A stretch of DNA of 59,274 nt, the filler included, from Sphacelaria rigidula (taxonomy: Eukaryota), in assembly GCA_964200075.2 (NCBI GenBank). It is 10 parts of 10 records of this genome, joined end to end, with 100 filler letters (N's around TTAATTAATTAA, not from the genome) between each part and the next. Parts side by side here need not be neighbours in the genome. Positions count along the whole stretch, not along the records: positions 35,627 to 41,463 come from CAXNAA020024074.1; 9 more parts are not named here. One strand, 5' to 3'. Numbering within the stretch: position 1 is the stretch's first letter; each line of letters begins with the position of its first letter. The notes beneath the pieces are model-generated. The model worked only from the letters and a program-made list of their open reading frames with translations, had not been told where the DNA came from and ran no database searches. The position numbers and the translations under genes are program-made. Shown piece after piece: positions 5,839 through 55,260 of the stretch.

Positions 5839-5938
5839 NNNNNNNNNNNNNNNNNNNNNNNNNNNNNNNNNNNNNNNNNNNNTTAATTAATTAANNNNNN
5901 NNNNNNNNNNNNNNNNNNNNNNNNNNNNNNNNNNNNNN
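5839..5938. other. Artificial contig linker (44 N + TTAATTAATTAA + 44 N); also at 11777, 17715, 23653, 29590, 35527, 41464, 47401 and 53338, each 100 nt
   Basis: The identical spacer, which has stops in all six frames, occurs nine times and separates segments of 5838 or 5837 bp. Confidence 0.98.
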
Positions 5939-17580: not shown

Positions 17581-17814
17581 CCCTCCGGGACTCAGAACAA
17601 GGTCACAAGATTGCTCCAAGGGCTTCCTCCCTCACTAGGGCCTGGAGACTTCAAGACAGTTGTTATTCATAAACACACAGCCTTCGTTATCGGAAGTAAC
17701 CACATGCGTGAAGCNNNNNNNNNNNNNNNNNNNNNNNNNNNNNNNNNNNNNNNNNNNNTTAATTAATTAANNNNNNNNNNNNNNNNNNNNNNNNNNNNNN
17801 NNNNNNNNNNNNNN

Positions 17815-18505
17815 CGATCTGACTCGAAATTTCGAGCAACAAATGGCCCAAAATATCCCCCCTCCTATAGTAGGATGACTCGTGACGAAACAACCCCTTC
17901 GCCTCGCCGTGTCCCATATATGTGGTCACCAGATCGCTCGCGATCGAGGAGGTAAGGTTGCTGTCATGTACAAACCTTACTGGCAAGGCCTTCGAAGAGC
18001 GTCCTGGGAACGTGAATCCGACCTTCAGCTGCACCGCCGAGCTATTACCCTGTACTGGACACCACCTCAGCAGCAACACCTTGCTAACAACAAGAAATAT
18101 CGCAACATGTGCCGCGGCGCAGCAGCACGCGAAAGTCACCGTAACAAAGCTTTACATTTTGTCGTCGATGAATATGAATCGGTTGTCACCGAGTATTCGG
18201 AAGAAAAGATCCGCGCGAAACAGGAAGTCCTACCCAGAAGCGCGTCCCTGTGGTACAAAGACAGCGACAACCTCTGATGGCTGGGTCAGACCCAATTCAC
18301 AGATCTGAACGCGCCTGACACATACATCGTGCGCTTCATCGATGATCCCGGACCCGTGCAGATCAAGCTCCGCCCAGAGCTTTATACCACCAGTCCATCC
18401 GCACCACGAGGATCTTGGTGTCTCCAGCGACTCAAGTTCAGAGGCCTCCGCCGCGGAATCCAACATAACATCGATCGCACATATGATGTCAACGCACCGC
18501 TTTGA
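17815..18505 (+). mobile_element. Ty3/Gypsy pol C-terminal tail after the integrase (chromo-like plus Tudor-like modules), degenerate
   Basis: One frame reads ...VSHICGHQIARDRGGKVAVMYKPYWQGLRRASWERESDL...LWYKDSDNL*WLGQ...TYIVRFIDDPGPVQIKLRPELYTT...GSWCLQ. The TGA at 18275 is probably a mutated TGG. It resembles the pol tail I recall from brown-algal Gypsy elements. Confidence 0.7.
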
Positions 18506-19956
18506 GCTTCCACGGATCTCCTGCTTTTTGATCCACAACATTTCTCTTTTTTCTCCGTCTACTATCATTTAGATATTCTCCCCTGCTTCCATCATTCAGA
18601 ACACATCAGTGCCACCCACCGACTTTTTCGACAGCCTACAACCGGAGCTCCTTCAGCGCACAGCAACGGACCATGAATGGAACTTGCCTGGAGCACCTTT
18701 ATCCTCGGCTCCTGGAGCTTTTCGTATTCTCGCTCTTGATTTGTATGAATCTCGTTGGACCCATTGCAGTCTTTGAGTTGCTGATTTCTTTGCTTTCCTC
18801 AGCCACCATGCGCTCGTCGCGTGTGATTGACCTTTCGGCGGTGGGTTTTGGTATCACCCACGTACACGTTGTGCCCTTGGTATGCCTTCTCTTTTGCCTC
18901 TTTACTTTGACTAGCGCGTTGAAGCATTTTTGTTCTTCCGTTAGAGTTCGCTACCCCACAGCAGCATTGTGTGCTCCTGCGTCTTCAAGTGCACTTGCGC
19001 TTTTGTAGCAGATTCTGCTTCCGTTGTTTGAGGTGTGGGAGGATCGGGCAACGGAGTGGATGTTGCCCTCCTGATCTGGGGTGTAGTGTTTCTCAGCCAC
19101 TACGGCCACGGCCGCGTACTTTTATAGCGTTTGAGGTTGCCTTCCTTGCCGCTCTTTTCGTTGCGTTTCGAGACTCCTCATCGCATCTGTAATAAAGGTT
19201 CGTCTGGGTGGGCTAGTGTCATGAGGCTGGGAGGCGTTTATGATCAAATCCGGGATTTTATGGTTGCCGGCTTGATCAAGCTTAACTAGTTCAGATGTGA
19301 GTTCGATATAGGGGAATAGGGAACATTTCTAGCTGCCCTTCCAGTTCACTTGCGACGTGAAGCTGAGCAAGGCAGCTATAGTTCGGTGAGTGACGTGAAA
19401 GAACATTGAACAGAACGGAAACGAATACGAGTGAACAGGAGTGAACAAGAGTTTCTAAGATCAAATAGATATCAACCTGCATTTGCGTGAAGTTGTCTTG
19501 AGGTATCTTGTTTCGGTCACGATTTAAGAGCTCAGCTGTGTTGCTTGCTGGACCGATCGATCCATCCGCCCAGTCTGCGGGGTACAACCCTGAAGCACGC
19601 CTGACAAACCTGACAAGTTCTCCACATTGGCCTCTTCACACTGGGTAATGGGAAACTATCGGAGTCATGTATAGTAGAAGTACAGTAGAAAACGATGAGA
19701 TTGATTGTACAGCCATCGAGAATTTCGAATGTTGTGTTGTGAAGGTTGTTCATGAAACATACCATTGACTAGTGGTGGCAGGTCAGTCAATAACTCGCCA
19801 GACGAAACGATTTGGCTGTTGGATACGTGTTTTACGCGATCAGGGCATGCAACAGTAGAGCTCTCGAGATAGATTCCTAAATATGAGGAAACGGATCGTT
19901 GGTCAAGAAAATGGCGAACGAGTGTAGCGATCTACGTCGTGATCACCCCACATGCA

Positions 19957-22365
19957 CACGTGGACAGATAGCACCCTGTGGACGGGGTCTACAGGGTTTA
20001 CGTACCCTGCGCAGTGTTTCTGGCGGGCATTTTACTGTACAGTGTTTTCCAGCGTAGCACAGGATGCTACACAGGGTTTCCCTACAGTAGTCATGAATAG
20101 TGTGCATCACAGGGTTCCTCTCCACAGGGTTTCTCTACAGTGGTCATGAATAGTGCGCATCACAGGGTTCCGTCGCCCCGTGAATAGTTCATCGCTGCTG
20201 GGAATGCTGTGTAGTGTGTTTACGCACAAACACTACTCTTCACATGTAGCTGCGGGCGCAAGGTACTGGCGGAAAAAAAAACTGATTAGGTTGGACGGGA
20301 GTCGAACCCTCGACTTCACAATTACGTCGCCTGCCGGTTACACACGGAGCTACGCGTGGTAGTCGTTAAGGATTGGTCGAGTTTTTTGTACTTCTGAATT
20401 TTGGGGCGGCCCTCGAAGGTCCGTGTCAATAACACTGGAATCCCCCGAATTGTTTTTAGAGGCACAAGTGTAATGGAAATCTGAAATTTGGACAGCCGCT
20501 GCTGTTCGAAATATATCCTAATTCCAAACTTGGAATATAGAGTTGAGAAAGGATTCATTTCGAAGAGCTTCAGCTGTACAGACAATTCTATATATACACC
20601 GTATATCGCAGATGGAATTTGTACACCAAGAACACCTGAAATTGGGTGGAGAAAGAACTTGCTCGCGAGCAGCTCCAGCTGTTCAAGTCCTATATACTGC
20701 ACGCAAACTTTTGTTGCAGCTGATGCCATGGTGACATCTGGTAATTGACCTCGCTAATACATGCATACACCTGATGAAAACCCCGTAGTCCCGCGTCGAC
20801 GAAACTAATACAATATACAGGGGATAATGAAACATCGATCTTATCGCGCATACTGCGTAATCAGGATGTATATTCACAACAATAAACTATACTGGACTGT
20901 ACAATACCGTTGCATGCGGGACAGTGCGCTATACCGCCGTGCTTATTATACGTGCGGCGCCATGTACTGCAGATGGCTGGCTATGAATACAATGTATAGA
21001 CGCCTGCACCTTATTTTGATATATGGGGCGGGTGTTATATACCGTCGCGAACTCCAGTTTTTCACGCCCGTTCAACGTCAAATATTTGCGCGCACAACTG
21101 CTGCAGCACATATGTCGTCGCCGCGCGATGTCGCGACCATGAAAGAAGTAGGTGCTCAAGTTTCCACCAACGAGAAATACATGATATCCACCCGCGCCGC
21201 ACGGCAGTGCGTGTATGTGTCTATATCCCTGTGCCCAACCCGTGCTCTTTGCTGCGGGGTTGTGGTCGTATAGCTGGGTGGAATAATAGCACCGTTGTGC
21301 GGGCGGGTGCTTTTGGTGATGTTTGGTTTGTGTGCTGTGATAAATACACGGAGTGATGGTCCAGATATATACTATTCATATACGATTTATGAGACGTGAT
21401 ATTTTCTGAACATGGTTCGTGTTGGTAGACAACGGAAAACGGGGTTTTGGAGGGAATGTAAATACCAAGACGAGGTATATCCGAACATCAAGAATATTTC
21501 CACCTTCCCAAAAGCTTCACACGAAGCACAGGGGTGGACATACCCACGTATCCAACGTGTGGGATCTCTGTTCAGCGAAATCGGTAGAGAGCTATTAATC
21601 CTTCAGCCTATGTATACATGGACTCGGGGGTGACAAGATGAATACCTTTCAGCAACTTTTTCTGCGTGTCGGATCCCATGCACCGGTGACGATGCAGTAT
21701 GCGGGATTTGCCCAGCAGCTAACGCTGCTCGCCATGAATTTCGTTTCCCCCAATCTCTGGATGAATTGGAGGGAAAAGTAAATATTAATTTCGAACTTCC
21801 TCTGCTGGTCAAATTCTGAATCTGCCAGTGTGCATGGGATTTGCGCAGCAAAAGGAGCTGTTCGAAATAGATCCTTTTTCGCTCATTTCGAAAATGGGCG
21901 AAAAAAGGATCGATCTTGAACACCTTCTTCTGCTGTTCTAAATAAGTCCTTTCCTTTGCCGTAATTAATCGGGCGAGAAAAGAATCTGTTTTGGATCTAG
22001 CTTGATCTGCTGTCCAAAATAAATTTGTTTTCGCTCGACTCAAATCGGGTGAAGAGGAATTTATCTCGGACAGGAGGACAAGGTATTGAAGATATATAAA
22101 TTTACAGATTTTGTACCAAAATACTTGGAATTTTCAAAAAAAAAACACTTGAGGTTTTTTCACCAAAACACTACCACATGACTGTGCAGGGCTTTGCCGA
22201 CGTGCCTACACAGGGCTGCAAATCCAACCCTGGGGAAAACCCTATCAAAACGCTGCCACGGGTTCAGATTTTGCATTTCACTGTCAGGGTTTTTTCACAA
22301 AGACTATGGAGGACCCTGTACGGACCCTGCACAGTGCGCCCCACAGGGTGCTATCTGTCCACGTG
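19957..22365. mobile_element. Non-autonomous CACTA/CMC-like TIR transposon, 2409 bp
   Basis: Perfect 25-bp TIR CACGTGGACAGATAGCACCCTGTGG at 19957-19981 and 22341-22365. Both ends carry many subterminal CAGGGT/ACCCTG repeats. No transposase inside. Possible 2-bp TSD (CA vs CG). Confidence 0.7.
20275..20362 (-). repeat. tRNA-derived SINE-like head; other divergent heads at 31714-31790 (+) and 45419-45507 (+)
   Basis: A-box-like motif, B box GGTTCGA(C/T)T and a downstream T-run; cloverleaf stems do not pair. Confidence 0.5.
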
Positions 22366-32004: not shown

Positions 32005-33905
32005 GGGGGGGGGCGTACTCATTTGTTGCTTGCCTTAGTCGTTCGACCATTGAACACGCACCCCTTTCGAGACGGAGCACCGTTCCTACTCCCAATAGAG
32101 ACGCCTTCAACATTCCGGCGCTCATGACGTTTCTTCCATACATTACACAAAAACTTTTACATATCTTATCCCCGTCCTGTTTCGCCGTCTGTGGCTACTG
32201 TCTATCTCCTAGTATAGCCCTTGTTTTCTCCCTACTGTCTGATACATCAAACGATTTCATGCCATCTTCGTTCACGTCCCGCATTTCCCCCTCTAGCACG
32301 TTCCGTTCCTCCTGTGTAGTTCACATTCTGCCACTATATATATGACTTCGCTCTCTATTGCTTTGCCACAGGGGCAAGTCTGTCCCTCTGCTTCCTCTTT
32401 CTTCCGACGACTGGTATATCTCTTTCTTCTTTCCGGCAGGTCCAGGTCCCCCACCCGAAATCGCAGTTGAAGGTTTTTCGCCGCGTTCATTGGGCCATGC
32501 AAATATGCTTTCATCCCTATCCCCTCTCTCAACCCCTCGTATATCTTCAGATGTTCTTCCTTGTCTATTTTCTGTCTGAGCGCTCGTTTTACCCTTATTT
32601 CTATCACGTCTTTTACTTTTGCCTTGTACCCCGCGCCTTAATCTATAGATGACATTTCGTCTTGATTTCCTCCCATCTCCTTCCATATTTTCTTGACTCT
32701 TCTATCCCACCCTACTCCAGCCTTCCCTTTCGTACTTTTATTTCATATAGCCGTATCAACTACAACTGGCAGTCTCTTTCTCTGCATGTTCTTTACGCTA
32801 TATTGCCATCGCAATATTCTCATGTCTCTCTTTATTTTAAGAGATAACATGTCCAACTCTGCTCTCAATACTGCATTACTCGTCGTTTTCGAGCATCCAA
32901 GTATCTTCTTAGCTGCTGCCATCTGTACTGTTTCCAACTTTGACACCAACTTCACGTTCCCGTCCCATACTTCTCCTGCATATTCCAGCTTTGGTACGAT
33001 CACGTTCACAGGACGCATCTCTCCATCCTAGTGTCTAGATGCGGCTCTCTGAGGATCATGTCCATCCTGCTTATCTGTTCCTTACCCTTTCCTATTACTT
33101 TGTTCATGTGTTCATCCCAAAAACAGTTTTTTGAGATCTTTACGCCAAGATATGTATACTGGTGTACGGTCGGCAGTTCCTCTTCTCTCAACTTCCATTT
33201 TAACTTTACCGGATTTCTCTTATCTTCGTTACAGCCAAATACCGCGCATTTATTGACGTTCGCTGTCACTCTCCATTCCCTAGTGTACTCTAGCGCATAG
33301 TCTATCTGTTTCTGTAATCCATCTGGTGGTTCTGAAATCCCCACAAAATCGTCCGCAAACATCAATCCTGATGACATATCTTCACCCACCTTGACTCCTT
33401 GCTTTGCTGCTTGTATTGCTATCATCAAGTCATCAATAAATACCTTGAATCGAGTGGGTGATAACGTACATCCTTGTGCAACTCCCTGTAATATATTTCG
33501 ATATTTCGATATTTCCCCGTCTAGTATCGTATCACTTTTGGCACATTTTGTCATCTTCGTCACCATTCTCCACATCTTTCCTCTGATCCCAGCTTCCCAC
33601 TACTTTTTCCACAACCCAGTTCTCCATACTGTGTCTTGTGCTCATCCAGAAAGAAACACTATGCGTATTGTTGTTAACCCGGTGTCTTTCCTACCCTGAG
33701 TAATATTACTTACTGTCTACACATGGTCTACGCAACTACGGTTTGATATAAATCCTGCTTGTCCCTCGCTGATGTTATCTTCCTTTTCTAGCAGCGTTCC
33801 TACTCTGTCGTTCAAAATCTTACAGAATGTTCCCCCTACCGTGCTTAGCAGCGTTGCCCCTCTAGAAGTTCCTGGGTCAGCCCTGTCCCTTTTTTGAAAA
33901 TATTG
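32005..33905 (-). mobile_element. 5'-truncated, decayed non-LTR retrotransposon (LINE) ORF2: reverse transcriptase plus C-terminal Cys motif
   Basis: RT motifs in order across frameshifts and stops: DPGTSRGATLLSTVGGTFCKILNDR, EGQAGFISNRSCVDHV, GVAQGCTLSPTRF, MFADDFVG, YTYLGVKIS, PKLEYAGEVW, then LRFRVGDLDLPERR...CPCGKAIES. Stop at 32021-32019. Confidence 0.9.
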
Positions 33906-35472: not shown

Positions 35473-35989
35473 TTAACCCTTTTGGGACCGGGCCTCCAGA
35501 ACGACCAATGAGGCTGGTCAGGAATGNNNNNNNNNNNNNNNNNNNNNNNNNNNNNNNNNNNNNNNNNNNNTTAATTAATTAANNNNNNNNNNNNNNNNNN
35601 NNNNNNNNNNNNNNNNNNNNNNNNNNCTGCAAAAGAGAAATGCCACTTCAACCCCATATTTTGTATCAACCCCATGTTTTAGGATTCACTGTTAGATGCC
35701 CTCCAAAGGATTCGTTTCATGCCCGGAACCGAGTATGAAATATCCCTATCGCAATTTTTATCCTCCCGAAGGTCTCTTCACCCTCGAGAGGATGAAAATT
35801 GCAATAGGGGATTTCAAGGGGACAGCCGAATGGCCGCATATGTATCCTTCCCCACTCCTTGCTCGCAATCTATTTTAGCGTGATTCGAGAGTGCTCTCCC
35901 TCCCTTTCTACTTTTCCTATTGCCAAACAGTGTAGTCCTACTCCACCGCACCCCCTCTTGCACTCCATTCTCGTCATATCGTTTCAGAC

Positions 35990-38437
35990 AGGCTGGTTCA
36001 CGCTCATCAACCAATAAAAACAATCATCCGCGAAACTTCACGCCATTTTTAGGAGTTAGAGCCTGAAATTCGCACATATTACTGTGGGTCATTTCGCAAG
36101 TTTCGGACGTGGAAGATGTTGTACGTCTTGACCCTTTTCACCGTTTTTCGGGAGTCCCAGGATTTGAGGGGGAACTTGGATCGCGTCGGACCCCGTAAAA
36201 CGGTAAAATAAGTCGAAACGTACAAAACCTCGTCCATCAAAAGTTGCGTAATAATCCGTAGCAAAATAGTGCAAAGTTTCAGCGTCTAACTCCTGAAAAC
36301 GGCGTGAAGTTGTGCGTGTTTGTGACATGACGTGAGCTTGCAACGTGAAAACTATTAACTATTGTGACGGTTTTTAAGAGATAACCAACTAGACTACTGA
36401 CCAGTCAGCGACTTTTGTGACGGTTTTAAGAGATAACCAACTACACTACCTGACCAGTCAGGTAGTGTAGTTGGTTATCTCTTAAACCGTCACAAAAGTT
36501 AGTCGCTGGTTCGATTCCCGTCGAACGCACTTTCTTAGAAGAAAAAAGAGGAGAGGAAAAACTTCTGTAAAAAATTGGCCCAAAGAGAAAAAGGGCCGGG
36601 TATAGCCTGGTGCGCACAGCTGCTGCAGCACAGGGAGTATGTTAGGAGTTGACTGCTACTGACCGCAGTGCCCATAATCTTGGAATGAGTGGGAGAGACG
36701 AGTAATTCTAGGGTATGGTGAGAGTGATCACATCAGAGGTCCTGATTGCAGTCGATCGAGCGCTGGCAAGGGGAGTCGCCCTCCTCGGAGTGAAAGTGAC
36801 GGGGATTGAACCCTCACGACCAACTCTTGTGACGGTTTTAAGAGACAACCAACGAGACTACTGACCAGTCAGCCGATTCCGTCCATGATCCCTGGCCAAC
36901 CCCTTCTGCTTGGTCAGTAGTCTCGTTGGTTGTCTCTTAAAACCGTCACAAGAGTTAGTCGTGGGGGTTCAATCCCCGTCACTTTCACTCCGAGGAGGGC
37001 GACTCCCCTTACCAGCCTATCGACTGCCATCAGGACCTCTAGTGTTGTCCCTTCTCACCGTACCCTGGAGTAACTCGTCTCCCCCACTCGTTTCTAGAGT
37101 GGGTGCACTGGGGACCGTAGCAGTCAACTTCTAACATACTTCCTGTGCTGCAGCAGCTGTGCGCACCAGGCTATACCCCACCCTTTTTCTCTTTGGGCCA
37201 ATTTTTTACCGAGGTTTCCTCTCCTTGGAGCCAATTTTTTACAGAGGTTTTCTCTCCTCTTTTTTCATCAAAGAAAGTGCGTTCGACGGGAATCGAACCA
37301 GCGACTAACTTTTGTGACGGTTTCAAGAGATAACCAACTAGACTACTGACCAGTCAGCCTCGCTGACTGGTCAGTAGTCTAGTTGGTTATTTCTTAAAAC
37401 CGTCACACTACTTGGTTTTAATATGAGGACGTCCTTTTAGGTGTAGTTAACGTCAAGGCGAGAAAAACTTCGTGAGATTTGCGAGTGTCGACCAAACTTC
37501 TTGCATAATTAAATGGTATACAGTCCACTGACCAGCGGCAATCGTCGTGAATTGAGCATGTTTCCAAGCCATTGATGTTATCTGCTGCTTCACAAGAAGA
37601 ATATGGGAGAGAACGGTCCTAGCATACAGACCCCCGGAAGCCGGCACCGAATGCCTTGAAACAACGAAAAGAAGAGCTCGTCCCGGGGTAGTCCGAGGAC
37701 TTCACACCAGGTTCCGTTCTGAAACTCTGTTTCAAATGATGCAAGGGGGTCGGTTGCATGTCAAACGTACCCGACAAAGGCTTGTCTATACTCAAATAAA
37801 CTAGTTAGGAAGTTGTACCGGGCACGCCAAACTTCAGCGGACTCATCCGCAAAACCTCACATCGGGTTTTAGGGACAGACTCCGAAAATTTGCACACGTG
37901 TACCATACGCCATTATAAAACCTTTTATGGACGGGTTTTTTTCCTCCCCATATAACCCAGGTTATCGAGTAAGGTTCCAGAAAGGCATGTGATCCGCATG
38001 ATCCCCGAATTCCCTGGGACCCCCAATAACCGGCGACCGAAAAATGACAGGACGCCGCTCTCGAAATCTCCGTAATGACGAGCAATGTTACAGTAGGGGT
38101 GCACTTCTTGCGCGAAATCTTGTCTAGTTCAGGGGCTCCTGACGATTCTAGATTGCACAAGAACATGGGTTAGGGCATCCCCGTTTGGAAATGCATTCGG
38201 AATATCTGTAGCACACTGAGATAGCAATCCTGGCGTACTCTTCACATATTTTTTAAGTGGTGTTTCGGATGAGATATAGGGCTCCTAACAACTCTAACCT
38301 CAGAAAATATTTGTGCACCCCTACCGTAGCATACCCCTGACCTAAACTATATGCGAGACAATTTCAGAGTCCAACTCCAAAACCGGCGTGAGCTTTTGCG
38401 TATGAATTCGCTTCGGGTAATGAGCGTGGACCAGCCT
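35990..38437. mobile_element. Non-autonomous PIF/Harbinger-like element, 2448 bp including the nested insertion
   Basis: TIR AGGCTGGT(T/C)CACGCTCAT at both ends, 3-bp TSD GAC (35987-35989 and 38438-38440). The AGGCTGG terminus recurs at 6643, 6763 and 35511. Confidence 0.65.
36363..37407. mobile_element. Palindromic non-autonomous element with TGT...ACA ends, 4-bp TSD and tRNA-derived terminal repeats (possibly Ginger-like or otherwise integrase-mobilised)
   Basis: Ends TGTGACGG...CCGTCACA. Flanks are CTAT (36359-36362) and CTAC (37408-37411). Inverted arms about 36461-36868 and 36911-37352. An empty-site homolog lies at 7501-7600. Confidence 0.75.
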
Positions 38438-40195
38438 GACCGACAATTGAAAACACTTGTGGATGCAGTACAGGTAGATGGCGGCGAGCAAAACTAAAGT
38501 TCAACAAGGGGCATTTGGGGTACACACGGAGAGCTCTCTGTCAACAGGGTCGTTGGATGCACCAAGCGTTCTGGGGGAGTACCGGGGACAGATCCGCGAT
38601 CACGCAGGCCAGTGCCGTGCACCAGGAATTCTCAACCCCTCAGCAAGCGCAGCGTAACCAATTGTGCAGGGTTGTACGGCCGCTTTGGTACACGCAAACA
38701 TATATTGTTCATTGCGCGGAGCGTGAACGAATCATATCCACGCACAAAGCACGAAAAAAGACGCGCCTAACTATATGCTGGTCGATAATACTAGAAGGTG
38801 GTGCGCACATTGCTCATCGCTGCTGCTGACAACGGAGAAGTCCGTGAGTGTACGTGATTTTGTATACCAGATACATTGACGACGGTTTGCGGAAGTCTGC
38901 CAATCTGGACACCTCTCGTCTAAGCCGTGTGCTATTTTGAGAGAGAGGCTCTCGCTTGTCTGGGGCGAATATCTGTCAATATATATACATATATCATACT
39001 TGGCTTTAAGCAATGTCCACGCCACCTAATGCGTGCTCCAAGCATATACCTAAGACGGTACAGCTGTTAGGGGACGGGAGGGACATACGGACTCGTTCCG
39101 AGGAACGGCGGGGGATTATAAATGTGCCAAAACAAAACAAACTGCACGTACTTCGGAACACTCACTTTACAAGCGACCGATACTCTAGGTACTCGCACAT
39201 ACTGATTGATCCGTGGCGTTAATACTGTGGATCCTCTAGAACACCCCGTGATTCGGGGAGTCGGTAATCCGGGTACTCGGTATACTGAATTTTTCTTGAG
39301 AACACCGAGTACGACAACGAGTATTTTGGGAGGGTGGGTATCCGGGTAAACCATAGTATCCAGTTTTTCAGCATTCGGTTCTCCGGGAACTCCGGAGTAC
39401 CCAATATTTCTGCAGGCGATCCTCGGGGTCCTCGTGGTACTGAGTGTTTATCTCAGTGAGTATACCGAGTACGACATCAAATATTTTGAGGGGTACTCCG
39501 GGTACGCTGGAATATTGAGTACTACAGACCTGAATGCAGAACCCTACTCTACCCTACGGACCTTTGGATGATACCAATGATCCTCGGATGATCAAACCAA
39601 CTCACAGCTACCGAAGCTAATGCTTGATGCTCAACGTACACCGACGGCAAACACAACAAATGTCACGATTCTGTACGGGAAAGCAAAGGGGGACACAAAA
39701 ACTGTGTATGGGCATGTAAATAGTTGTTAAAGGCCTACCACATTTCGACAACAGCGGGTGACAGGGGCAGTCCGAGCGAAACAGCAATAGCAGAGCTAAA
39801 AAACGATATACTGTATATATGCACATGAATCCCGTGTACCCACGGTGTTCGCGTTGTGTGCAGCGAACGCTTCGATACTCAAAACTATGCCACAAAACCA
39901 CTCTACACGCATACAGCAGTTTTTAATACAACCCACAGAAATACAACACTACAAAAAACCGAAGCACACGAGGAAGATGCAGACTGAATACACAGCAAAA
40001 AAAAGCTAGTTGAAACGATATCGTACCAACCTCCCAACGCCAACGCCAACAGCAACCCCCGATCCCCAACGCCAAACCTACCACCATCCTCGCATCCCCC
40101 CGCCGCGGCAGAAGGCAACAGCTACCCCCAACGCCGAACAAACGTCGTTCAGAAGAGATGCTTGATACAAGATCAACAATACCAGATCGATCGTA

Positions 40196-41342
40196 TCATA
40201 TGTTCCATGGTTGGGTATCTTCTCCCGGTGCATTTCCGCCCCCCCACATATCTCCTCGCCCACCGGCCCCACCGCGGCTGCCGACGTCGTCGGTGGTCTC
40301 CAGTTGGTCTTCCAGCGAGTCGTTTTGTCGCTGATGCCCTTCCCTGCGCCCCTCGGTTCGGGGATTATTGGCATCGGTAGAATCTTCCTGTTGTGGTGGT
40401 GTTGCTGCTGCTGCTCCTGCTCCTGCTGTTGTAGGCGGTGATCGATGGGAGGCTGAATGCTCTTCATCATTGGATAACCTGCCACCAAAAAAAGCGGGAG
40501 ATAGAAAAACACGACAGAACAAGGTACTCTGAACAACAAAAAAAAAGGACGAACATACGTAGATCATCATCGTTGACTTCAGTTCACGCCATGTTAAATC
40601 AACACGAACCTAGGCACACTGGATTGGGATTGTCCGCTGAAGCATGTCCGGTAGTCCACGGCTGAAAGGAAAAAAAGGTTGCGTTTGTCTCTCGTTTTTT
40701 CCCCCTATGGTACAGCATGTGATGGATAAGTAATACACGTTTCAGTGCGATGTGCTCCGGGGCCCGCAGCCCACGAAGAACAAGTACTGCGCGTACAGTT
40801 CACGTGCGTGGGTTTCTCTTTCTCGTCTGATGCACAGTGAGTACTGTACGATAAGGTTCCAGAGTATGTCAACGGGACAGTGTCATGATACGCCACCAAC
40901 CCCAGGAACGACAAAAGAAACCCTTGAGCCAGTGCAATCACCTTCGCAATTGTAACGGCGGCTCAAGTTCAGCAGCAGACCCCTCATCATCCTCCAACGC
41001 CGAGGCAGGCCTCTTGACCCCGACCCCTTCCTCCGCCTCACTCCTTTCTCGACCACCATCGGCCAAGCCCTCTCTGTCCGCCGCTGTACCGCTTTCCCCT
41101 ACTTCATCCAGGTCACCGGAAGCCGGCGGCGCCGCCTGCGCCCCAGGCCCGGTAACAGATGACTCAGGTCCCGGGGCTGGCGCTTGCGCGCCCCAGCTGC
41201 CGCCGCCGCCGCGGTTGTGTTCTGACGTCGCTGCTAATGAGGATCTCGAACTTCTGCTTCTTGCGGCGGCAGTTGGGATGACGGCGCCTCGGGATCTACG
41301 GTTGGCTCGTATCCCGGCTTTCATGGCGCCCCGCAGTTGGAA
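40196..41342 (-). CDS. Last two coding exons of an unidentified gene; low-complexity, probably disordered C-terminus
   Basis: Exon 41342-40942 (aag|FQLRGAMKAGIRANRR...LEPPLQLR AG|gtgatt) splices in phase 2 to exon 40478-40196 (tttttggtggcag|G LSNDEEHSASH...QPWNI stop). Both are GC-rich and open. Confidence 0.7.
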
Positions 41343-41825
41343 CTTGTGTGCGTGTGTGTATTTGGGAAGAGGGAAGGGGGGGGGGGGGGGGGGTGCGAGA
41401 CGAGCGGGGCGGGGGGAAGGGAAAAGGGGCAGTGCCTGGCGGCGAGACCGAGAAAGAGAAAGANNNNNNNNNNNNNNNNNNNNNNNNNNNNNNNNNNNNN
41501 NNNNNNNTTAATTAATTAANNNNNNNNNNNNNNNNNNNNNNNNNNNNNNNNNNNNNNNNNNNNCACCCTGCTAAGATTGTTCGGCCCAAACACCAAGTTC
41601 AGGATATGCAACACTAGATCACGGCTGGATCCCTCAGGCATAAGTTAATGTGCAACAATAAACCAATGAGAAATAGGCACATGCAACACCGATCACATGA
41701 ACACCCTTGACTTTCCCCCCCTAAACTCCGTGCTCACAAGTCACACGCCGCAGGTTTTGTCATTTTTGTCTACATTTTCTGCTGTTCTTCGGGGTTATTC
41801 ACTGCGCCCTGGTTATCTAAATTCA

Positions 41826-43683: not shown

Positions 43684-46600
43684 CTTGGCTTCCTCCAACA
43701 CCTCAGGCGGAGCGGTTGCCTCAAACTCTGCTTGCTCCTTCAACCGCAGCTCCTCCATAAACTCGCGAGCCAATTCCCTCTCCTTCTCGATCTGCTCCGC
43801 CACCTTCTCCAAATTGATCCTATTTTTCAGCAAGGGGCATGGCATTCCAAAATTCCAATGGTGTTCGTACGGCGTCCAAAATAAATGACGCCATTTCATT
43901 CCATTCGATCCGACCCGATCCGACCCAATTGGATTGATTTCGATTGATTTTACACGTCGGGCAGATCACGATACGTCTGAAAATTAGGTCTCCTCAGAAC
44001 GCTAATCCGGATCATGATCTAGATCATATGACCCCCCATTTCTCATGTTTGCTCCTTACAGCGCCGGACGCCGAGCACGCCGACTTGCGCAAAGGTTGCG
44101 CTTTGGCTTTTCTGACTCCGTGGTCACATACGTCGTGCTTTTGGACCAACAGATTCGAGCGTCTTGTTTGATGAGTTGTTTCAGACAGACCATGATCTAT
44201 CCGACGTGTGACCAATTTTCTATTCGATTGGTGATTGATTGGTTAGGCTGTCACTACATCAACTGATACGCTTCGAGTCTACTCGTGTTCAGCCACAAGG
44301 AAGATTGATGGATTGATTGATGAATGGATTGATGGATTGATTGATTGACTGATTGATGGAGGGCCTGTATTGGCACATGACTTTTCGATCGAAATTGTGC
44401 GGTGGAAAGCAAAAATCCCGATCTGATAGGTCCTAATTTCAATCATCATCGTAAAAAAAATATATATATATGGTTGAAATCATGACCTATCAGATCGGGA
44501 TTTTTGCTTTCCACCGCACTTTTTTGATCGAAAAATCATGTGCCAAGACACGGCCTGGTTGATCGATCGATTGATTGATTGATTGTCGCACTTCAGCTGA
44601 TGCCCCAGGAATCATGATCCAGCAGCCGTGGTCATTATCCATATGATGGACGAAACCGAGATGAAGACAAAATGGAAACACCCGCTGAAGGAACGTGAAG
44701 GACACCGAATGATACAAACAGACATACACGAGATAGATACCTCGAAGAAACACTCGGAAAAGGGAAGTCGACAAAATGGACAAAGCGGCAAACGAAGAGC
44801 GAACGAAGTGCGCAGTGGGGCTCCGACACAGATGCACGTCGAAATCGCTCGTCACAAGTCCGATCCGCTAAACTTTATATTCAAGGGACCAAAATGAGCT
44901 AACCCAAAGTAACTAATCGAATAGGAGTACGCTCAAATCCCTTGTCCAAAAATACGCAGTACGTGACAGCAGGGTCCGAGAAGCCACAGCAATTATTTCA
45001 CTACTCCGCGTGCTCAGTGTCCAGCGTTGTAGAGAGTATATTTTACAGTTCGGACGAATCATCGCCGGTTGGAATCACCGAATCCACGATTTTTCAGGCC
45101 TGGTTGCTCGAAAGAGGGAGAAAAGTTGATCGCTGGTCAAGGAGGTCTGCACGCAATTTTTGCGCCATTGCACGCGCCTGGACTACGCGTACCTGGGTTG
45201 CAACGCTGAAGACAAAATCTAAGGATTGATTCGTCCGGTACGAATCAATTGCACTAAAATCAAGTTTTTCCGGACGAATCATTAATTCGTCCGACCCTTG
45301 GTAAATTTGGAAGAAAACAAAAAAAGATCATGATCCCGATCAGTACACTAGTATGAAGTAATACTCATTAGTCAGGTGACCGATGAGGCGTGAAATATTG
45401 GTAAATATAGTGGTTGCTGGCGCCGTCCAGTGGTCTAGTCGATATGTACGCCAAAAATCAGTTCGGGTGAAAGGTTGCCGGTTCGACTCCCAGCAGGTAG
45501 TTTTTTTCCCTCGAAAGAATCAGATTTCTGCCGTTAAATACGTGAGGACGCAGGGAGCGCAGAATAAAAAGATAGCGATAAGAGTGGATGGGATGCCGAA
45601 GAGTTCATCCAACTTTCGGTACGAGCTGGGCCAGCTTAAAAGCTGCTGAAACTTGCTCACACCACAGCTTTCCCAGTTTTCCGAATGAACCCAATGTAAG
45701 CATATCACTGTGACGTATAGACCAACCTGGTGACACACGGCACCGCCGCTGAATGAAAAAAATAAATGAAAATAATGTACTGCATAATGTATTACCTTAA
45801 CGACGGACGAAAAAAACAGAGAATATGTCGGGATTCGAACTCATGACCTTCATAATTGGAGTCTCCCATCACTTGATTTATAGGGGTGCCTCAGCGTCAC
45901 GGAAAATGTTAAACGCACGGCCCAATTCGACGAGTCTTGAGCTGAAATTTCAGGAAGACCTTCTGCGTCCAAGGGACTGATACTTCACGAGTCCAGCTGC
46001 AGATTCTCCTTTTTTTCCTGGACTTGAGGCATTATCTTGTTTTTGCTGAAATTTCAAATGCCCATAACTTCTTATTTTTTACTTCCATATTTTTTGGACC
46101 CGTGATCTTCTGCATTTTGATCATGAAAAGCTGCTGTCAAAATTTCAGCGTCCAACTCCGGATATCGCGCCGTGCATCGCCTGACCGAGATTCACACGTA
46201 CTCTTGGCTGGCCCAGCGCGTATCGAAATTCCATGCAGGACCCGGGGCGAGTGATGGAGGGACCCCGTAGACTCTGGACTTATTTTCAGAAAGGGAGCGG
46301 GTTTAGAGCATGGCGAATGTGTACGTACATGCATATATATATATATATTCTTTACATGTACATTTTGTGCGTTACTGCACATACAAGTCATCATTTGTGT
46401 TCCGTTACTTCTCAGTCAACTCCACCGATTGATTCGGGACGGTTTTCCCGTTTTTTCGCCTCAGATGCATTTACCACTTGACCACGGCTGAGATCCTTGG
46501 CGGAACAGTCACGGCTGGCACAATCAACGAGCCGACAACAAAGCAACCAAATCGAATCAAATCGAATTGACCTGTCAGTCCATGACCTCATCGATCACAA

Positions 46601-48007: not shown

Positions 48008-51000
48008 ATGATGGGAAAGCAAGGGAGAGTTGGGTTCAGCAACACCGGGACGGGGAGAGCTGGAGGCTCATCTGCTGCCAAGAAGAAGATCGTTATCAGG
48101 CCCTTCAAGGTAATACTGGAACCGGGCTCGACGATCGCAATTGCGCTGTAGAGTATTGTCCGAAATAGTCAATGGTTTGATTTAGTGGGTTCATACATTT
48201 CCCGGACATCCTCCCCATAAATCGGAGCAGCAAGTAGCACTTCCCCCCAAAGAGCTGTTTTTCAAATATATCTCCCTGCACTAGAGCCAGGTCGTAATCG
48301 GAACGCAAACTGACCGTACGGTACTGTACTGTTGTCAGCTGAGCTGTTGTCGCGCAGCCGTTCTAACTTCGGTAATGCTCTCCTACCTGTACCTACATGC
48401 ATCGTTGTCAAGCAGGGCTATTACCTCTAGTCTGCATGGAGTTTACTGCAGCGTACTTCAGTGCTTTTGTGCGATTCTACTATAGCACAACTCTGGTAAT
48501 CGCCACGACGCAATGTTACGGTACGACACAAAGACCGTCCCCACTCTACAGGTCGGCGCGTATGCTAACTTGACCCGCTGAGTTCGTGCCACGACTCGTT
48601 CACAGCAGGCACTACAGATAACAAGTAGATGCGAACTTTCAGCCATTTCCACTAATTGGCTGCATGAAAAATGCTGGTTGTGCCTCTCTCAGCGATTAGC
48701 ACAAGCGTGTATCTGTCGCGATCGGGCACATTGTCCCCAAAACTTTGTACAAATTTTCGAGCGTTGGATATCACACAAATGTTCTCGGAAAAAAGGTCGT
48801 GACAGGATTTGTTCGATTATACTGAATAATACTTCAACCGTTTGTCTCAGGGACGCACAAAAGACAACACTTTGTCCACGGACGTGTTGTTTGCCGCGTG
48901 AGTTTCGTATACCTTATTCAAACGTCAGCGCCTCTTTTGTCCCAAGTCATGCAAAAAAGAGCGGTGAGGGCACCTTCCTCAACGAGAAGTTACAGTAGCT
49001 CCGCAATGGTCAACCGTTACACGTACGTGTGCCGCAACACTCCACTTGCTACTTGATACAAGTACAGTACCATGATCCAGCTGTGGTACGCAGCGCATGT
49101 ATATACAGCATATCCTCTGCAGTACGCGCTCTTGATAGCCTGGAGTTTTGAAGTTCAAGACGACGACCCTCGTGGGTACGTAAGTGTGTGTTGCCATCCC
49201 ATCTATTCTGGGCGCCGTTGTACATCTTTCGGTACAAGCGGTCGCACCAGCCGGCGTCACGCAGTAGAACGGCCAACACAGAAGTTTTATTTTCTCCATT
49301 TATTTTAGCTCTCCACCTTCGTTCTGTGGTGCTTGCTTCTTTTTTTTTATCGCGAAAAGGGTTCAGCAGTCCCTTTCCGTCATCGACCGTTAAGTCGATT
49401 TTTGTGTACCCACGACATGGTCGCTCTCCACTGTTGAGCGTTGTGTGAGAAAAAATCCAGATCGCTCCGATATTCGAACCCACGACCCAACCGTCAGAAA
49501 GTTTCGAGGTTAGCGACTGAGCCACCGGGGTGACCGGTCATACTAGAGGTCATATTACAATCGGTTGTCATTTGAACACGTCACACCCATGCATGGTTGG
49601 CTGCTCCTTCCATGTACTGAAAGCACTACACTGCGTGGTGGAAGCCTCGAAGCCTCGTCCAATAAAAACCCCACATGTGTCGCAACCCTATCCACGGCGG
49701 ACTCCCTCTTCATGCCATCACTCAGGTATAGGTGGGAAGTATAGTCCCCACGCAGCCGTAGGGGTAAAACTAACTCAAAATACCGTGCGCAGAGTGCATT
49801 TACCAGGCGTGGAAATGTGTGTGATTGCAGGTCCAACCGAAGCTCCCGGATAATTTCGAGGACGACACATGGGAGAAGCTCAAAAGAGCCGTGGGGGCTG
49901 TGCAGGGAAAGCGACCGATTGCGACGAGCAGAGAGGAGCTGTACCGAGCGGTGGAAGATCTGTGCGTCCACAAGATGGGGGCCAAGCTCTACGACAGGTT
50001 AGATGTACAGTAGATAATCACACAGGTTAGGTCTACTGTTCAACAGTGTTATGACGGAGCCACTCTGGCGCCCGCCTCATGTTGCAGTGAGCAGTGAGCA
50101 CGGAAGTGACTGATTTGGGACCGCCGGGGTGTTGACGATACTACGTAGACGTTGTTTTGGCCAACAGCTTATACTTGTCGGATAAGGGTTTCTGATACGG
50201 TGAAACCGATAGGCTGGAGACTGTCTTTGGCAACCAGCACCGATGTGCACAGAGTGCGTGCCGCACGAGTACACAATGATGAAACGCCGGATTGCGTTGG
50301 AAGTAGCGTTGTGTACTCCAACACGATGCCCCACTCGTCCACCATCATTGAAAGTGCCCACAGCATATTCTCTCGACCCACACCCTTCTGAGTTGCTGCC
50401 GGAACGGAGACGGATGTGAAGTTCCGTGCTTGATCATTGTCTAAGCAGGCGTTAGAAAGCTGGACGGTGCTGTTGCACCAAGCACCCCGAGCAACTAATT
50501 GTACAGAAATCTGACGACTGAACACCAGATAATCGCGAACGTCTGTATCGCATAGTCTGACTCCAATGGCTCGGAGTCTTCACTAATAAAGCCTTTGATG
50601 GGTGTGTGCGCTGCCTCAAACCTTGAAAACAAACTTGACCGTGTACGCATCGTTACTGCGTTACCGCGCAGATTGCGCGTGGAGTGCGCCGTGCACATTC
50701 GCGCGGAGATGGAGTCTCTGGTGGGCCAGACTCCGGACTGCAACGCGTTCCTGCAGCTTGTAGACTCCAAGTGGCAAGACCACTGTTCCTCGATGCTGAC
50801 ACTAAGAAACATATTCCTGTACCTGGATCGCAGTTTCGTGCTGCAGGCGCCTGCACTGCGGAGTATATGGGACATGGGTCTGGAGCTATTCCGCAACAGC
50901 CTGCAGGTATTACAAGCACGGGGGTGTATGGTTGGCGGCTAGGGACGTGGTGTTAGCGACATAAGTCACCCACCATGAAACTATGATACGGTTTCGGTCT

Positions 51001-53075
51001 TTGTTCTTTCGTCTTTGCAGGTGTGAATGCCGAGGGCAGTTGTGTTGCATTTTCTCCCGCGTGGTACCAGTAGTGCTGTCACAGTGCTTTCTTTCGCGAG
51101 ACAAGCGATGTTATGGTCGCCTTCTAGTCGAGCACGAGGCGTCTTTGTGTGCCCGACCATGGGCATGCATCTTTTGATGACGAGCCGATCGGAAACTGTT
51201 CTCATGAAGCTTTTTTATGTATAACCATTCAAGGCTCCGGTATGTATCCACACAACGTTGACAACTGTCAGGCATCTTCCGGCAGTATCTGTGGCGGTAC
51301 CTGCTCGTATCCTTGTCTACTACGCGTGTTGTGGTGGATATGCCATGCTACCGCGCTGTACCAACACTGCTAGGGCACATGGGCTTCGTCGTAGACCGTC
51401 TTCGCCGGCAAGATACATGCGTGGGTGGCGCGGCGTGAGTGAAAAGTATCTACTACGGTGTGGCAGTTTGGTTCGCCGAACAACAGTTGCGAGCGGGGGG
51501 CTACCACTGACTCCTGAGGTAGCGGCGGTACCGCCAGATGGAGAGTGCCTAGAGGGCGCTATTCCTCTCCTGCCCTGCTTGCTTTCGGTGCATATCATTG
51601 GTCGAGAGTACCCTACTCGTGTGTTGCCCCGTCTATATTTGTCCCCGTTCATGTCATAGCCCGCGGTTCGTTGTTGGTTTGCTCGTGACTTTTGCTGTCA
51701 GCCTACGCGAGCTGTAGCGCACCTTTTCTTTCAAAAGTCAGATTTAAATGTCAAATTTCTCGTGCGTTCATCGGCATCTCTGCGCGATGATCTCGGCAAA
51801 TTTAGTGCCACCAGCGTCGAGTATCCACCGATTACCCCGTAGAGGTAGTTAATACCGCAGGTAACGCTTTCCATACAAGTACTTGTGGGATGTGAGTCGT
51901 TGTGGATTTGTACCATCTCGAGAGATGATCATCCTGCTGGCAACGCGCGCGAAGACACGAACAACGACGATTAAAACCGTGGAAGGTGTTGAGATTACGC
52001 CGCATCTCCCGACTACAGGTACCCCGAAACGAGCGAACTCCACAGTTGACTGCGTTTCCAGATACAAGCTTTCGATCGATCCCAGCCATCTTTTATTTGT
52101 AATCACCGTGGCTATTGAGTTGAGAGATTCGACCAGCCTTGTACGGTATGTCAGGCACTGACTGGCTTATGTGTCAGTACAGTAACAGATGGCCCGCCTG
52201 ACTGCAGCTCACGCCGTCACTAATTACTTGAGTTTAGTGTCGACCACCGCCTGAATACAGAGTCGGCCAATTTTGAGTAATCTTGATCCCAACGAAACGC
52301 CCGCACGGGTACTTGATTGGTGACGGTGGGTATATGGATATTCTGAAATATATATATATATATATATTTTTTTTTTCATATGAGGAATGACTGATGAATT
52401 GATTTTGATTGATTGTCGCACTTGAACTGACCCCCCAGGGATCCAGCCGTGGTCACATGATGGACGTACCCGAAACAAAACAAAACAAAAATACTCGCTC
52501 AAGAAAAACAAGGAACAGAAAAGGTCGAACAGAATGACGTCGTAGACTAAGACGTAACAAAACAAAACGAATAAAAAGTCAATTGAAGCAAAGCACAGAA
52601 TGAAATGGCCGGTCAAATGAAGGAACACAAGAGGGGGGAAAAAAATACATGAAAAAGGCCGAAGAGATTCAACCACAAGATCATTGATGTAAGGAACCAT
52701 GTGTGTGAGGCTGACATCTATGCTGTCGCTAAAACCGCAAGTTGGTGCGCGAGTTCATGAGCAAGCAACCGTTTTGCTTGTATCTCCACCGAAGTAAATG
52801 TACACCGCTTCCTTCTCTCTCCGTTTCCGACACTGTATTACGCCCTCCCTAGGACGGCCTGGGCAACGGTCTTTTGGCTTGATAAGTGTATTCGTCGTTG
52901 CGGCCCCACCCCCTTCCCTGCCATGATCGTGTTATTTTTTTGCACGCAGGAGTTTTCAGAAGTAGAGGCTAAGACGATAGCCGGCATTTTGACGCTGGTG
53001 GAGCGAGAGCGAACGGGGGAAGATGTCAACCGCCCCCTCCTCCGAAACCTCTTGAGAATGCTATCGGCGCTTCAG
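48008..53075 (+). CDS. CUL4: Cullin-4, N-terminal 4 exons (210 aa); 3' part lies beyond the contig end
   Basis: Exons 48008-48109, 49831-49997, 50672-50906, 52950-53075 with GT-AG introns and matching phases (0, 2, 0). Peptide: MMGKQG...[31 protein letters not shown]...[29 protein letters not shown]...[25 protein letters not shown]...[11 protein letters not shown]|...[27 protein letters not shown]. This is the cullin repeat 1 region with a CUL4-type N-terminus. Confidence 0.92.
49355..49537 (-). mobile_element. tRNA-derived SINE in CUL4 intron 1
   Basis: Minus strand: CCGGTCACCCCGG TGGCTCAGTCG (A box) ... GGGTTCGAAT (B box), followed by a non-tRNA body. No closing acceptor stem. Confidence 0.65.
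52398..52620 (-). mobile_element. 3' end of a (CAAT)n-tailed retroposon; other copies at 4461-4519, 16140-16340, 43225-43500, 44557-44720 (-) and 41600-41670, 42300-42540, 46480-46570 (+)
   Basis: Conserved GACCACGGCTGGA(T/C)CCC...TCAGTT.AAGTGCGA-(CAAT)n with a T-rich upstream part and variable 5' truncation. Confidence 0.75.
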
Positions 53076-55260
53076 GTGATGACGTGACGGTCATGTTTAC
53101 GGTTTCGAGGCAGCGTGGCATGCCTTGCCCGTCCTCGTTCCAACTTAGCATGATCCTGATGTCGCGGGATCATTCAGGAACGTGATTCCTCAAGGAAAGA
53201 GGCGCTCGCGGGGGGGTTCCGCGATGATGTTTTTCATTTCCAACCCCCCCCCCCCTCGTTTCTCTCTGAAAGTGGCGATACCAGAAAGTGAAGCAACTCA
53301 TTGTAGGTTGTCATCCAAATGCAAGATAATCAGTAGGNNNNNNNNNNNNNNNNNNNNNNNNNNNNNNNNNNNNNNNNNNNNTTAATTAATTAANNNNNNN
53401 NNNNNNNNNNNNNNNNNNNNNNNNNNNNNNNNNNNNNTTTGTGGTCCTCCACACCAAAATTCGTCGCCATCCGCTAAATGCATCGATCAGGAGTTTCATA
53501 GATATTTTAGTATTGGCACTATCTCCCTTAGGTATAGGAACTACCAGACATGGGGTTCCATCAACGAGAAAATATGGGCCCAAACTTCTGAGCAGATGGG
53601 CACCTTCCCCTTGACTAGACGATTAATACGATATGCGGATCACGGCCAAATTCGTCTGTGTCGATGAGATATTGCTTTTAGAGCTTAAATCCGTTTTTAG
53701 GCTGGCCCAGCTCGTACAAATTACAAGTGTATTATTTAGTATCTTGTCACATTTTTGAAAGCAACATGGTAACATGTGTATTAAATATAAACTGGAGTAG
53801 TCTGCTCATCAGACCCGCAACAAAATAGGAACACGGAACATGACCGTGGAAATTTGAAGTATTGAGTGTCGGAGCCCGAAGCCTGACGCTTGTCAGCCTG
53901 TCTGGTGGCGAGCTACGCCACATGGAGCACTTGCGAGCAACAAAATATCGCAACTTTATGCGCGTTTATTCGCGTTTAAAGCAAGTTGAGCATTATAAGC
54001 CGATTATAATCTTTACGCTAAACGGGCTTATTTAAGCTGAAAAAAAACAAATTAAGCTAAACTTTATGCGCGCATACGGAACTAAAGCCTAACTTGACTC
54101 CTATCTTATAGACCACCACGCCAGATAACACCTGTTCACAAGATCATGGAAATTTCATCCAGCTCATTCTCAGCTACCACCACAACCCTGCAGCATAAAG
54201 CACGACCTGAGCCCAGAAATAGATACACTACAGCAGTCGAGGATGCTTTCTTTATTTCTTGTTGGCGAAAACTATCGCATCTTCTGTCGTGGGAGGGATC
54301 AGCGACGGAACTGCGTGGTACCGTGGGGAACCGAGTTGCGTGCACGCTCATGGACAACAGTGCAGGCAGTAAAAAGCTGCTCATTGCTGAAGTCCTCTTC
54401 ACGTCGCATTGTAAGCAGAGAGAGCTGATAGTCCTGGGCTGTCTGCACCGCACGTTGCCCGCTCCTCTTTTATATCCTCCTGTACAAAACACGCACGCAC
54501 GCACTCAAGACACTGCATGCAAGCAGTGCAGACAATACAAACTGTATCCACTGTACACGAGTGACTATGTACCGTTTCATGAATTTCACTGTCTCTTTTC
54601 GATCGAAAGCTTGAAAATTCATCTAGACCCAACTCCAGAAAAATGAGCGGATTTATCTCAAGTCGATTCCAGCGCCCCTCCTTTTCCGATCGAGAAAAAA
54701 TGTGCCAAGTCGCCGCGATACCTTCCTCCCCCCCCCCCCTCCACCGAAAAAGAAGCGGCGGCGCTTCTTTTTGACAGTGGCACTTTGTTGAAACGATTAT
54801 TTTTGAATTTTTCAGGCCATTCGGGAAGACTTGTTTGGGTTGTTCGCCATGAAGGGCAACATGAACCAGCGGCGCAATGACCTTTTGCTGTGGTACGCAC
54901 CTGTGACACAGCTCGGACCTCAGTCGTAAGCTGGCATATTTCTACGTCGGATGTGTGTGCGTGTTTGCCCGGGCTTTGTTGAGACGGTGCAATCTGGTTC
55001 AGTCATGCCCGTTAAGATTTCCAGACCTGCCTCCGACTGCGTCCAGTGCGGAACGAATAACCGCTCTTCCCAGGAAGCCAGTTTTGTGGAGAGTCATTAG
55101 GACCTATCGAGACGAACAAAAAAAAAAGCACGAAGAGGATAAAGTGTCCAAAGCAGGAAGTTGATTGATAGCTTGCGGCGATTAATCAACGTGCTGCTTT
55201 TGGACGCTTGTCCCTCTTCGTGCTTGTTATTCTGGTGTCGATGAGACACGGCCGTGTCTT

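Follow-up and report, generated by a model that had tools for sequence, protein, structure and literature searches.

An inserted palindromic block from an abundant mobile-element family of the brown alga Sphacelaria rigidula

What kind of mobile element is built almost entirely from its own mirror images, and by what route might it move? The question is raised by a block at positions 36363-37407 of a 59,274-nucleotide (nt) stretch of Sphacelaria rigidula DNA (assembly GCA_964200075.2), the window of this analysis. The window is made up of ten 5838-nt segments taken from separate places and joined by spacers of the form N44-TTAATTAATTAA-N44 (5839-5938 and eight more sites, one per 5938 nt), so that features in different segments are not genome neighbours. 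The block lies in the seventh segment (35627-41463), and a paralogue of the host sequence around it, at 7347-7622, lies in the second. The block is real, is an insertion, and comes from a very abundant non-coding mobile-element family of this brown alga. How it moved is not settled by a single copy; we infer an enzyme class, a DNA intermediate and an origin for its dimeric form from the features described below.

Sequence reading and a repeat finder resolved the block into an arm (a) followed by the order H1-K-H2-K'-H3, that is, seven arms of about 46 nt, three hairpins (H) and two inverted cores (K and K'). Forward arms begin at 36363, 36416, 36828 and 37313, and reversed arms finish at 36494, 36950 and 37407. 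A sequence-only reading that preceded this work had placed seven arms at these positions, with three hairpins and two inverted bodies, and was borne out by our reading, the repeat finder and BLASTN. The arm reads TGTGACGG..., and the block ends are TGTGA...TCACA. Its parts are listed below, with repeat-finder entries in brackets.

36363-36411 (+): arm a, TGTGACGG...CAGTCAGCGA, half a hairpin in excess, pairing best with the outermost right arm, 37360-37407 (2/49 differences; 98% over 40 nt, I7)
36412-36415: linker CTTT, 4 nt between arm a and H1
36416-36494: hairpin H1, arms 36416-36454 and 36457-36494, shortened centre (I13, 100% over 30 nt)
36495-36827 (+): core K, 333 nt
36508-36518 (+): B box in the T-arm-like left end of K
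36537-36561: all-purine tract in K, the only long purine run
36802-36812 (-): B box in the T-arm-like right end of K
36828-36950: hairpin H2, with a central spacer of about 33 nt at 36874-36905 (I2)
36951-37312 (-): core K', 362 nt, an inverted copy of K (D5, I1, I3)
36966-36976 (+) and 37289-37299 (-): B boxes of K'
37313-37407: hairpin H3, arms 37313-37358 and 37362-37407, 3-nt loop (I6)

The 46-mer given in the sequence-only reading is a consensus, to which none of the seven arms is identical letter for letter. A search with an arm 26-mer at up to three mismatches gave five matches, all in 36416-37407, against 0.00 expected from 100 shuffles; the other two arms were missed by this gapless search because each has a 1-nt indel. 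No other copy of the element was found in the rest of the window, either with the 26-mer or by BLASTN. Aligned with its own reverse complement, 36416-37407 showed 80.4% identity over 1045 columns (BLASTN), and mean column identity was 90% with MAFFT. Mirror symmetry takes in the arms and the T-arm-like core ends (I2, 111 nt at 95%; I3, 76 nt at 96%), and as the ends of K are also mirror images, each end of an H-K-H unit is symmetric over about 130 nt. All three H units (from 36416, 36828 and 37313) read TGTGACGG...CCGTCACA, in TG...CA form, and, being palindromes, they count as direct and as inverted repeats alike.

DNA folding gave -40, -49.2 and -48 kcal/mol for H1, H2 and H3, respectively (z from -12.8 to -17.3), and none of 200 shuffles was as stable. 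The hairpins at 36413-36497 and 37315-37405 also resemble plant and animal microRNA (miRNA) precursor families in Rfam; these candidates, the only Rfam matches and far under their thresholds (e.g. MIR1319, 57.6 bits against a gathering threshold of 116.6), were rejected as matches of hairpin shape. Variants private to a hairpin were found in both of its arms, namely TACAC and an additional C in H1, and GACAAC and CGAGAC in H2, and the outermost arms, a and the right arm of H3, would meet in a perfect palindromic centre, GCGA/TCGC, as a plain H. This pairing of private variants, with the perfect centre, suggests that H is a unit of its own or that its arms correct each other. At the ends of K, the B boxes have been kept and the remainder has drifted. 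A 33-nt unit occurs twice in K' (37191-37256) and once in K.

Whether the block arrived as one piece was judged against the paralogous host repeat. The sequence-only reading had proposed insertion with a 4-bp target-site duplication, for which the relevant features are as follows.

36359-36362: CTAT, left copy of the putative target duplication, where homology to the paralogue stops
37408-37411: CTAC, right copy of the putative target duplication
7347-7622 (+): paralogous 'empty' host repeat, about 70% identity, in another segment

When the flanks were joined with one 4-mer dropped, they aligned with 7347-7622 free of gaps for 100 columns on each side of the junction, with a score of 185; when both 4-mers were kept, a 4-nt gap opened at the junction and the score was 181. 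The left flank (36176-36353) matches 7347-7522 at 70%, and the right flank alone scored 61, against 21.9 +/- 3.2 (maximum 34) in 200 shuffles. Relative to the paralogue, then, the block is inserted at this single site with 4 nt in excess (CTAT/CTAC). The proposal stands as far as the empty-site alignment and the 4-nt excess go. The duplication itself, however, is read at one site, is identical at three of its four positions, and is judged against a paralogue of about 70% identity, which is no allele since it lies in another sampled segment; a perfect 3-nt CTA duplication, with one T added on the left, would account for the data just as well. The host sequence to the left of the insertion, 36029-36316, is itself a repeat of about 290 nt with 40-nt inverted ends, 85% complementary. 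It occurs in two segments (also at 6787-7100), and read depth suggests tens to hundreds of copies.

Among public runs, 15 were listed as containing the stretch, none of them from RNA; they come from one organism and from algal, marine and protist metagenomes. Reads were examined as Logan contigs from the best four DNA-type runs (X1-X4), covering at most three samples and two studies. The view takes in 24 loose ends out of 1,104 and 15 joints out of 146. Summed contig depth in X1 was 72,668-807,278 in the element outside the diverged centre of K and 4,984-20,620 within that centre, while unique flanks had about 56-66. The family thus amounts to roughly 10^3-10^4 copy equivalents in summed depth, a measure that, here and below, is not a copy number. 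A 74-nt bin at 35874-35947, with a summed depth of 323,707 (X1) and a sharp loose end at 35931, is the boundary of another high-copy repeat, unrelated to the element.

The reads also define where the repeated unit begins. The loose-end consensus before 36373 (27-34 contigs per run) ends in TGTGACGG in all four runs, and the letters upstream of it vary between runs (agreement 0.55-0.59); the same boundary was seen before 36837 in X2 and X4, the two runs with a listed loose end there. The unrelated sequence upstream of TGTGACGG in these contigs indicates that the unit starts at TGT in many copies. At 37358, the 3-nt loop of H3 is absent in 93764.5 of 98739.6 depth units (X1), and the commonest continuation after ...CAGTCAGC is GCTGACTGG. 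In the family, then, the hairpin is typically a perfect palindrome with no loop, about 92 nt long. Direct tandem arms occur elsewhere in the genome (reads at 36941 and 37360), with an arm ending in CCGTCACA and the next following immediately, mirroring the extra arm at 36363-36415. Two exact-pattern scans of metagenome contigs, one for the arm pattern and one for the T-arm-like core end, found 0 loci each, as did a single such scan of prokaryote genome contigs.

Could the palindrome be an artefact of assembly or library preparation? A fold-back chimera had been named as what might overturn the sequence-only reading, and none of the listed contigs crosses any hairpin or the whole stretch. Contigs of single-copy depth, however, match 35902-36392, 36606-36784 and 37361-38000 with no differences in X1, and those at 35902-36392 and 37361-38000 do so with 0-3 differences in the other three runs, so that there is independent evidence for the diverged centre of K and, in two studies, for the outer junctions on both sides. 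The arms, moreover, are only 80-90% alike and differ by indels, and the two halves differ by a 31-column indel and in hairpin centre. An artefact is thus very hard to credit. K and K' also share an A, at 36524 and its mirror 37283, where 94-98% of family depth is G; where either core otherwise departs from the family consensus, the change is mostly confined to that core. This pattern fits either sister copies that have since decayed at the locus or a pair of members of a single subfamily.

The inner arms and the adjoining core ends were next compared with transfer RNA (tRNA) genes, the sequence-only reading having called them tRNA-Asp-like heads. The A-box and B-box strings it quoted are present. 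A motif scan gave seven A-box-like and four B-box-like motifs in the element; B boxes are rare, with six in the window on both strands, four of them in the element. Those at the ends of K read GGTTCGATTCC in left-type and GGTTCAATCCC in right-type heads. When the A-box-like TAGTSTMGTTGG is numbered as tRNA position 8, GTC falls within 1 nt of positions 34-36, and the B box falls within 1 nt of position 52 in heads of the left type, where the A and B boxes start 45-46 nt apart, and 4 nt later in those of the right type, where they start 48 nt apart (canonical 44). Each of the four inward-facing heads carries A-box, GTC and B-box landmarks at tRNA-like spacing. The arm ends three bases past GTC and, in this numbering, the outer ends of the element do lie at the putative anticodon loop, as had been suggested.

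Dedicated tRNA models gave a different picture. ARAGORN at default settings found no tRNA gene, Rfam gave no tRNA match at E ≤ 10 in a 1.8-kb or a 101-nt slice and no gathering-level hit in the whole window, and none of the four heads folded as a cloverleaf (z from -0.41 to -0.93, no better than shuffles), a T-arm-like hairpin being the only element formed. A relaxed ARAGORN search returned Asp(gtc) for one of the four heads; the call was rejected, as the window gave 37 calls and ten shuffles gave 18-35. The heads are therefore tRNA-like in their landmarks and not in any model or fold; a tRNA-derived origin is plausible, while the specific label tRNA-Asp-like has no support from these models. 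In left-type heads the first run of at least four T (TGTGACGGTTTT) comes 8 nt inside the next arm, about 385-415 nt downstream, and in right-type heads T5 and T6 runs come about 275 nt downstream. Transcription by RNA polymerase III (Pol III) from these boxes is possible, and convergent transcripts could overlap. Elsewhere in the window, at 45428-45505 (+) and 20290-20365 (-), are two units in which 7-9 T in a row come after a B box (GGTTCGACTCC). These may be Pol III-type units that resemble tRNAs or short interspersed nuclear elements (SINEs). ARAGORN at default calls neither; their similarity to the heads is confined to about 18 nt around the B box.

How, then, might the element move? We tentatively favour, at a confidence that stays short of even, a fold-back non-autonomous DNA element akin to MITEs (miniature inverted-repeat transposable elements), moved in trans by an integrase-type DDE (Asp-Asp-Glu) enzyme and present here as a composite dimer. 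The working end of the family is the 46-nt arm beginning TGTGA. Two arms back to back give the smallest form, the perfect palindrome H of about 92 nt, and longer forms hold a K of about 335-360 nt between two H units, the inner arm and adjoining end of K reading as the A-box/anticodon-loop/B-box skeleton of a tRNA gene. Movement would be as DNA, in the manner of fold-back or MITE-type non-autonomous transposons: a DDE enzyme of the retroviral-integrase kind, encoded by an autonomous element outside the window, would recognise the TGTGA arms and join them to target DNA that it cuts with a stagger of 4 nt. Because both sides of each H present an outward-facing end, a composite could be bounded by any pair of H units, and recombination or template switching within the palindromic H might flip and join units. 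The locus would then be a dimer, H1-K-H2-K'-H3, with one extra arm.

The structure of the element is consistent with such a course. It is short and non-coding, with inverted termini, a short duplication at its one site and a high copy number, as in MITEs and fold-back elements, and the loop-less hairpin, with two ends abutting, looks like an extreme deletion derivative of an element with terminal inverted repeats (TIRs). Fold-back elements and palindromic MITEs are small, non-coding and of high copy number, with self-folding ends and minimal forms of two inverted ends; the present element differs in that each end is a complete palindrome and in its subterminal Pol III-type boxes. No open reading frame (ORF) with a Pfam domain was found in or beside it, and no integrase-core (rve-type) hit among the 127 ORFs of the window. 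The primer-binding site (PBS) motif for initiator methionine tRNA (iMet), the one primer compared, is absent from the element; the sequence beside each repeat is in the tRNA sense. By reading, no purine tract adjoins a terminal repeat: 42 nt separate 36537-36561 from H1 upstream, and 266 nt separate it from H2 downstream.

The ends would suit an integrase-type enzyme. TGTGA...TCACA termini and a 4-nt excess support this reading, since TGTNR ends, TIRs of 40-270 bp and 4-bp duplications mark Ginger1 in the available text of Bao, Kapitonov and Jurka (2010, PMC2836005). TGTGA fits TGTNR, the 46-nt arms lie within the TIR range and the excess has the Ginger1 length; published duplication lengths are 4 bp in Ginger1, 4-5 in Ginger2, 6 in Polinton and 3-6 in long terminal repeat (LTR) elements, with 3-6 bp for integrase products generally. 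The earlier suggestion of Ginger-type ends thus holds for terminus and duplication length. It fails for the target, which is CTAY here and CCGG/CCGT in Ginger1, and for which Ginger2 prefers RTATAY. The accompanying statement that tRNA-related TIRs are known from Ginger1 families could not be traced, the available text of the Ginger paper having no occurrence of 'tRNA' (PMC2836005). Neither Troyka, with CG...CG ends and 3-bp duplications, nor IS481EU, from parabasalids, was retained as a candidate.

Several observations weigh against the DNA-transposon explanation. The target differs from those of both Ginger groups, and the duplication is subject to the doubts given above. No integrase or transposase partner, of the Gypsy-integrase-like kind or other, was seen within the window, and the main text available for the curated Ectocarpus transposon census lists no Ginger among its superfamilies, and no Pol III SINE. 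The B boxes kept at both ends of K, with the terminator-like T-runs, hint that transcription matters, which would be needless for a pure DNA transposon. Placing K between H units as in a composite also leaves unexplained that all four K ends continue the arm into a tRNA-like unit. Finally, since no listed contig spans a hairpin, it is the assembly that supplies the order of K and K' and their orientation.

A rival explanation is a retroelement. H would be a miniature palindromic LTR and H-K-H a terminal-repeat retrotransposon in miniature (TRIM), transcribed by Pol III and inserted as complementary DNA (cDNA) by a Gypsy or Copia integrase; H-K-H-K'-H would be an array sharing its middle repeat, in the manner of Cassandra, and plain H units would be solo repeats. 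The closest known group is TRIMp3, comprising Helenus, with tRNA-like LTRs, and Cassandra and Ajax, with 5S-like LTRs. In the available text of Kojima (2024, PMC10886601), these have Pol III boxes of tRNA or 5S origin in TG...CA repeats and 4-5-bp duplications, Helenus combining a degenerate tRNA-like sequence (boxes A and B) with a PBS and a polypurine tract (PPT). The element is likewise short, non-coding and abundant, with TG...CA repeats and degenerate tRNA-like boxes that tRNA finders mostly reject. The sequence-only reading had seen an undescribed class in the union of Pol III promoters with integrase-type ends, a description that TRIMp3 already fits. Cassandra arrays typically have about three LTRs with internal domains between them (PMC7215508, available text), a count as in the element; the A and B boxes are retained at both ends, the T-run of the left-type heads is within Pol III range, and Gypsy and Copia are abundant in a related brown alga, in the part of the census available. 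We nevertheless regard a TRIMp3-like retroelement as unlikely. The repeat consists of a tRNA-like 5' half in perfectly palindromic form, with the A-box-like motif in H and the B box 13-15 nt past the ACA end, in K and so outside the TGT...ACA unit, whereas Helenus has its whole tRNA-like part in the LTR. Neither PBS nor PPT was found: the iMet motif is lacking, the repeat-adjoining sequence is not complementary to a tRNA, and the sole long purine tract is about 40 nt from a repeat, on the 5' side. The ends of the internal part mirror each other and give it no polarity, and its two copies are inverted, those of Cassandra being in direct order. The host, too, is a stramenopile, while Helenus is reported from fungi, animals and one plant and not from stramenopiles (PMC10886601, available text). 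Mirror symmetry and the lack of PBS, PPT and polarity therefore weaken a retroelement origin, which the B boxes and the placement of the T-runs keep alive. A more specific version, which we hold improbable, is a stramenopile counterpart of TRIMp3 that would copy its ends in a new way, its terminal repeat being a fold-back of a tRNA-like 5' half ending exactly at the anticodon-loop position. A Pol III transcript running from a hairpin centre to the TTTT 8 nt inside the next arm would hold all that is required to rebuild both palindromic ends by snap-back synthesis, and the cDNA would be inserted by a retrotransposon integrase. If so, inverted multimers and convergent transcripts would arise from this fold-back chemistry too, and integrase insertion would give the TGT...ACA ends and the 4-nt duplication.

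Simple tRNA-derived SINEs, moved by a long interspersed nuclear element (LINE), would account for the A-box, GTC and B-box landmarks at tRNA spacing, the degenerate stems and the thousands of copies. Copies would have landed in or next to each other, or been inverted by twin priming, with the hairpins and TGT/ACA ends as by-products. Short elements that depend on LINEs form the most abundant families of Ectocarpus, according to the available census text; the two other units with a B box and T-run, and a reverse transcriptase (RT) fragment in another segment, are in keeping with this. Yet neither border has an A-rich, simple-repeat or LINE-like tail; both are the same inverted arm, with TGT/ACA termini and a short, fixed-looking duplication. 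The arms are paired in all three hairpins, with private variants common to each pair, which independent SINE insertions would not give. The heads are recognised by no tRNA model, and no other part of the window, including the RT region, is similar to the element. A SINE family is thus a distinctly poor prospect. Growth in place, which is less likely than not, bears on the origin of the dimer and is compatible with any route of movement. The original insertion would have been one H-K-H, or just a plain H, and fold-back template switching or hairpin-primed repair at H would have duplicated K in inverted form, quasi-palindrome correction keeping the hairpin arms alike. The rare A shared by K and K' agrees with this, as do their private changes, which are expected of sister copies decayed in place, the variants shared by the two arms of H1 and likewise of H2, and the perfect plain H formed by the outermost arms. 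After fold-back at H2, however, H1 and H3 should be identical, and a 16-nt centre and two paired changes set them apart; the extra arm has no mirror partner on the right, and common subfamily origin accounts equally well for the shared variant. On this evidence the fold-back, MITE-like DNA element remains our preferred explanation.

Of the window's ORFs of at least 100 amino acids, two reached the Pfam cut-off, RVT_1 at 33009-33599 (-) (E = 9.8e-12) and Cullin at 50556-50939, and three weaker hits fell below it. The RVT_1 ORF is a fragment with no sequence similarity to the element. Cullin exons were found at 50556-50939 (+) and 52761-53084 (+), the protein of the former being 79-86% identical to brown-algal cullins, with 84-86% for proteins of Pylaiella littoralis and Ectocarpus, which marks the host as a brown alga.

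No description of such an element was found in literature searches on brown-algal MITEs and SINEs, tRNA-derived or B-box MITEs, or Sola termini. What sets the element apart is the palindromic repeat of a tRNA-like 5' half, with the B box outside it and the internal parts inverted; the pairing of Pol III boxes with TG...CA ends was already known from TRIMp3. For annotation, the hairpins could pass as miRNA loci, and the heads could inflate counts of tRNAs and pseudo-tRNAs, as Helenus does in rust fungi (PMC10886601, available text). Brown-algal mobile DNA is only partly described, since the Ectocarpus census, in its available text, leaves 51 DNA/Unknown and 94 Unknown families unclassified. Against this background, the family could represent a Ginger-like or TRIMp3-like lineage, the first from stramenopiles, or, alternatively, could blur the line between MITEs, SINEs and TRIMs.

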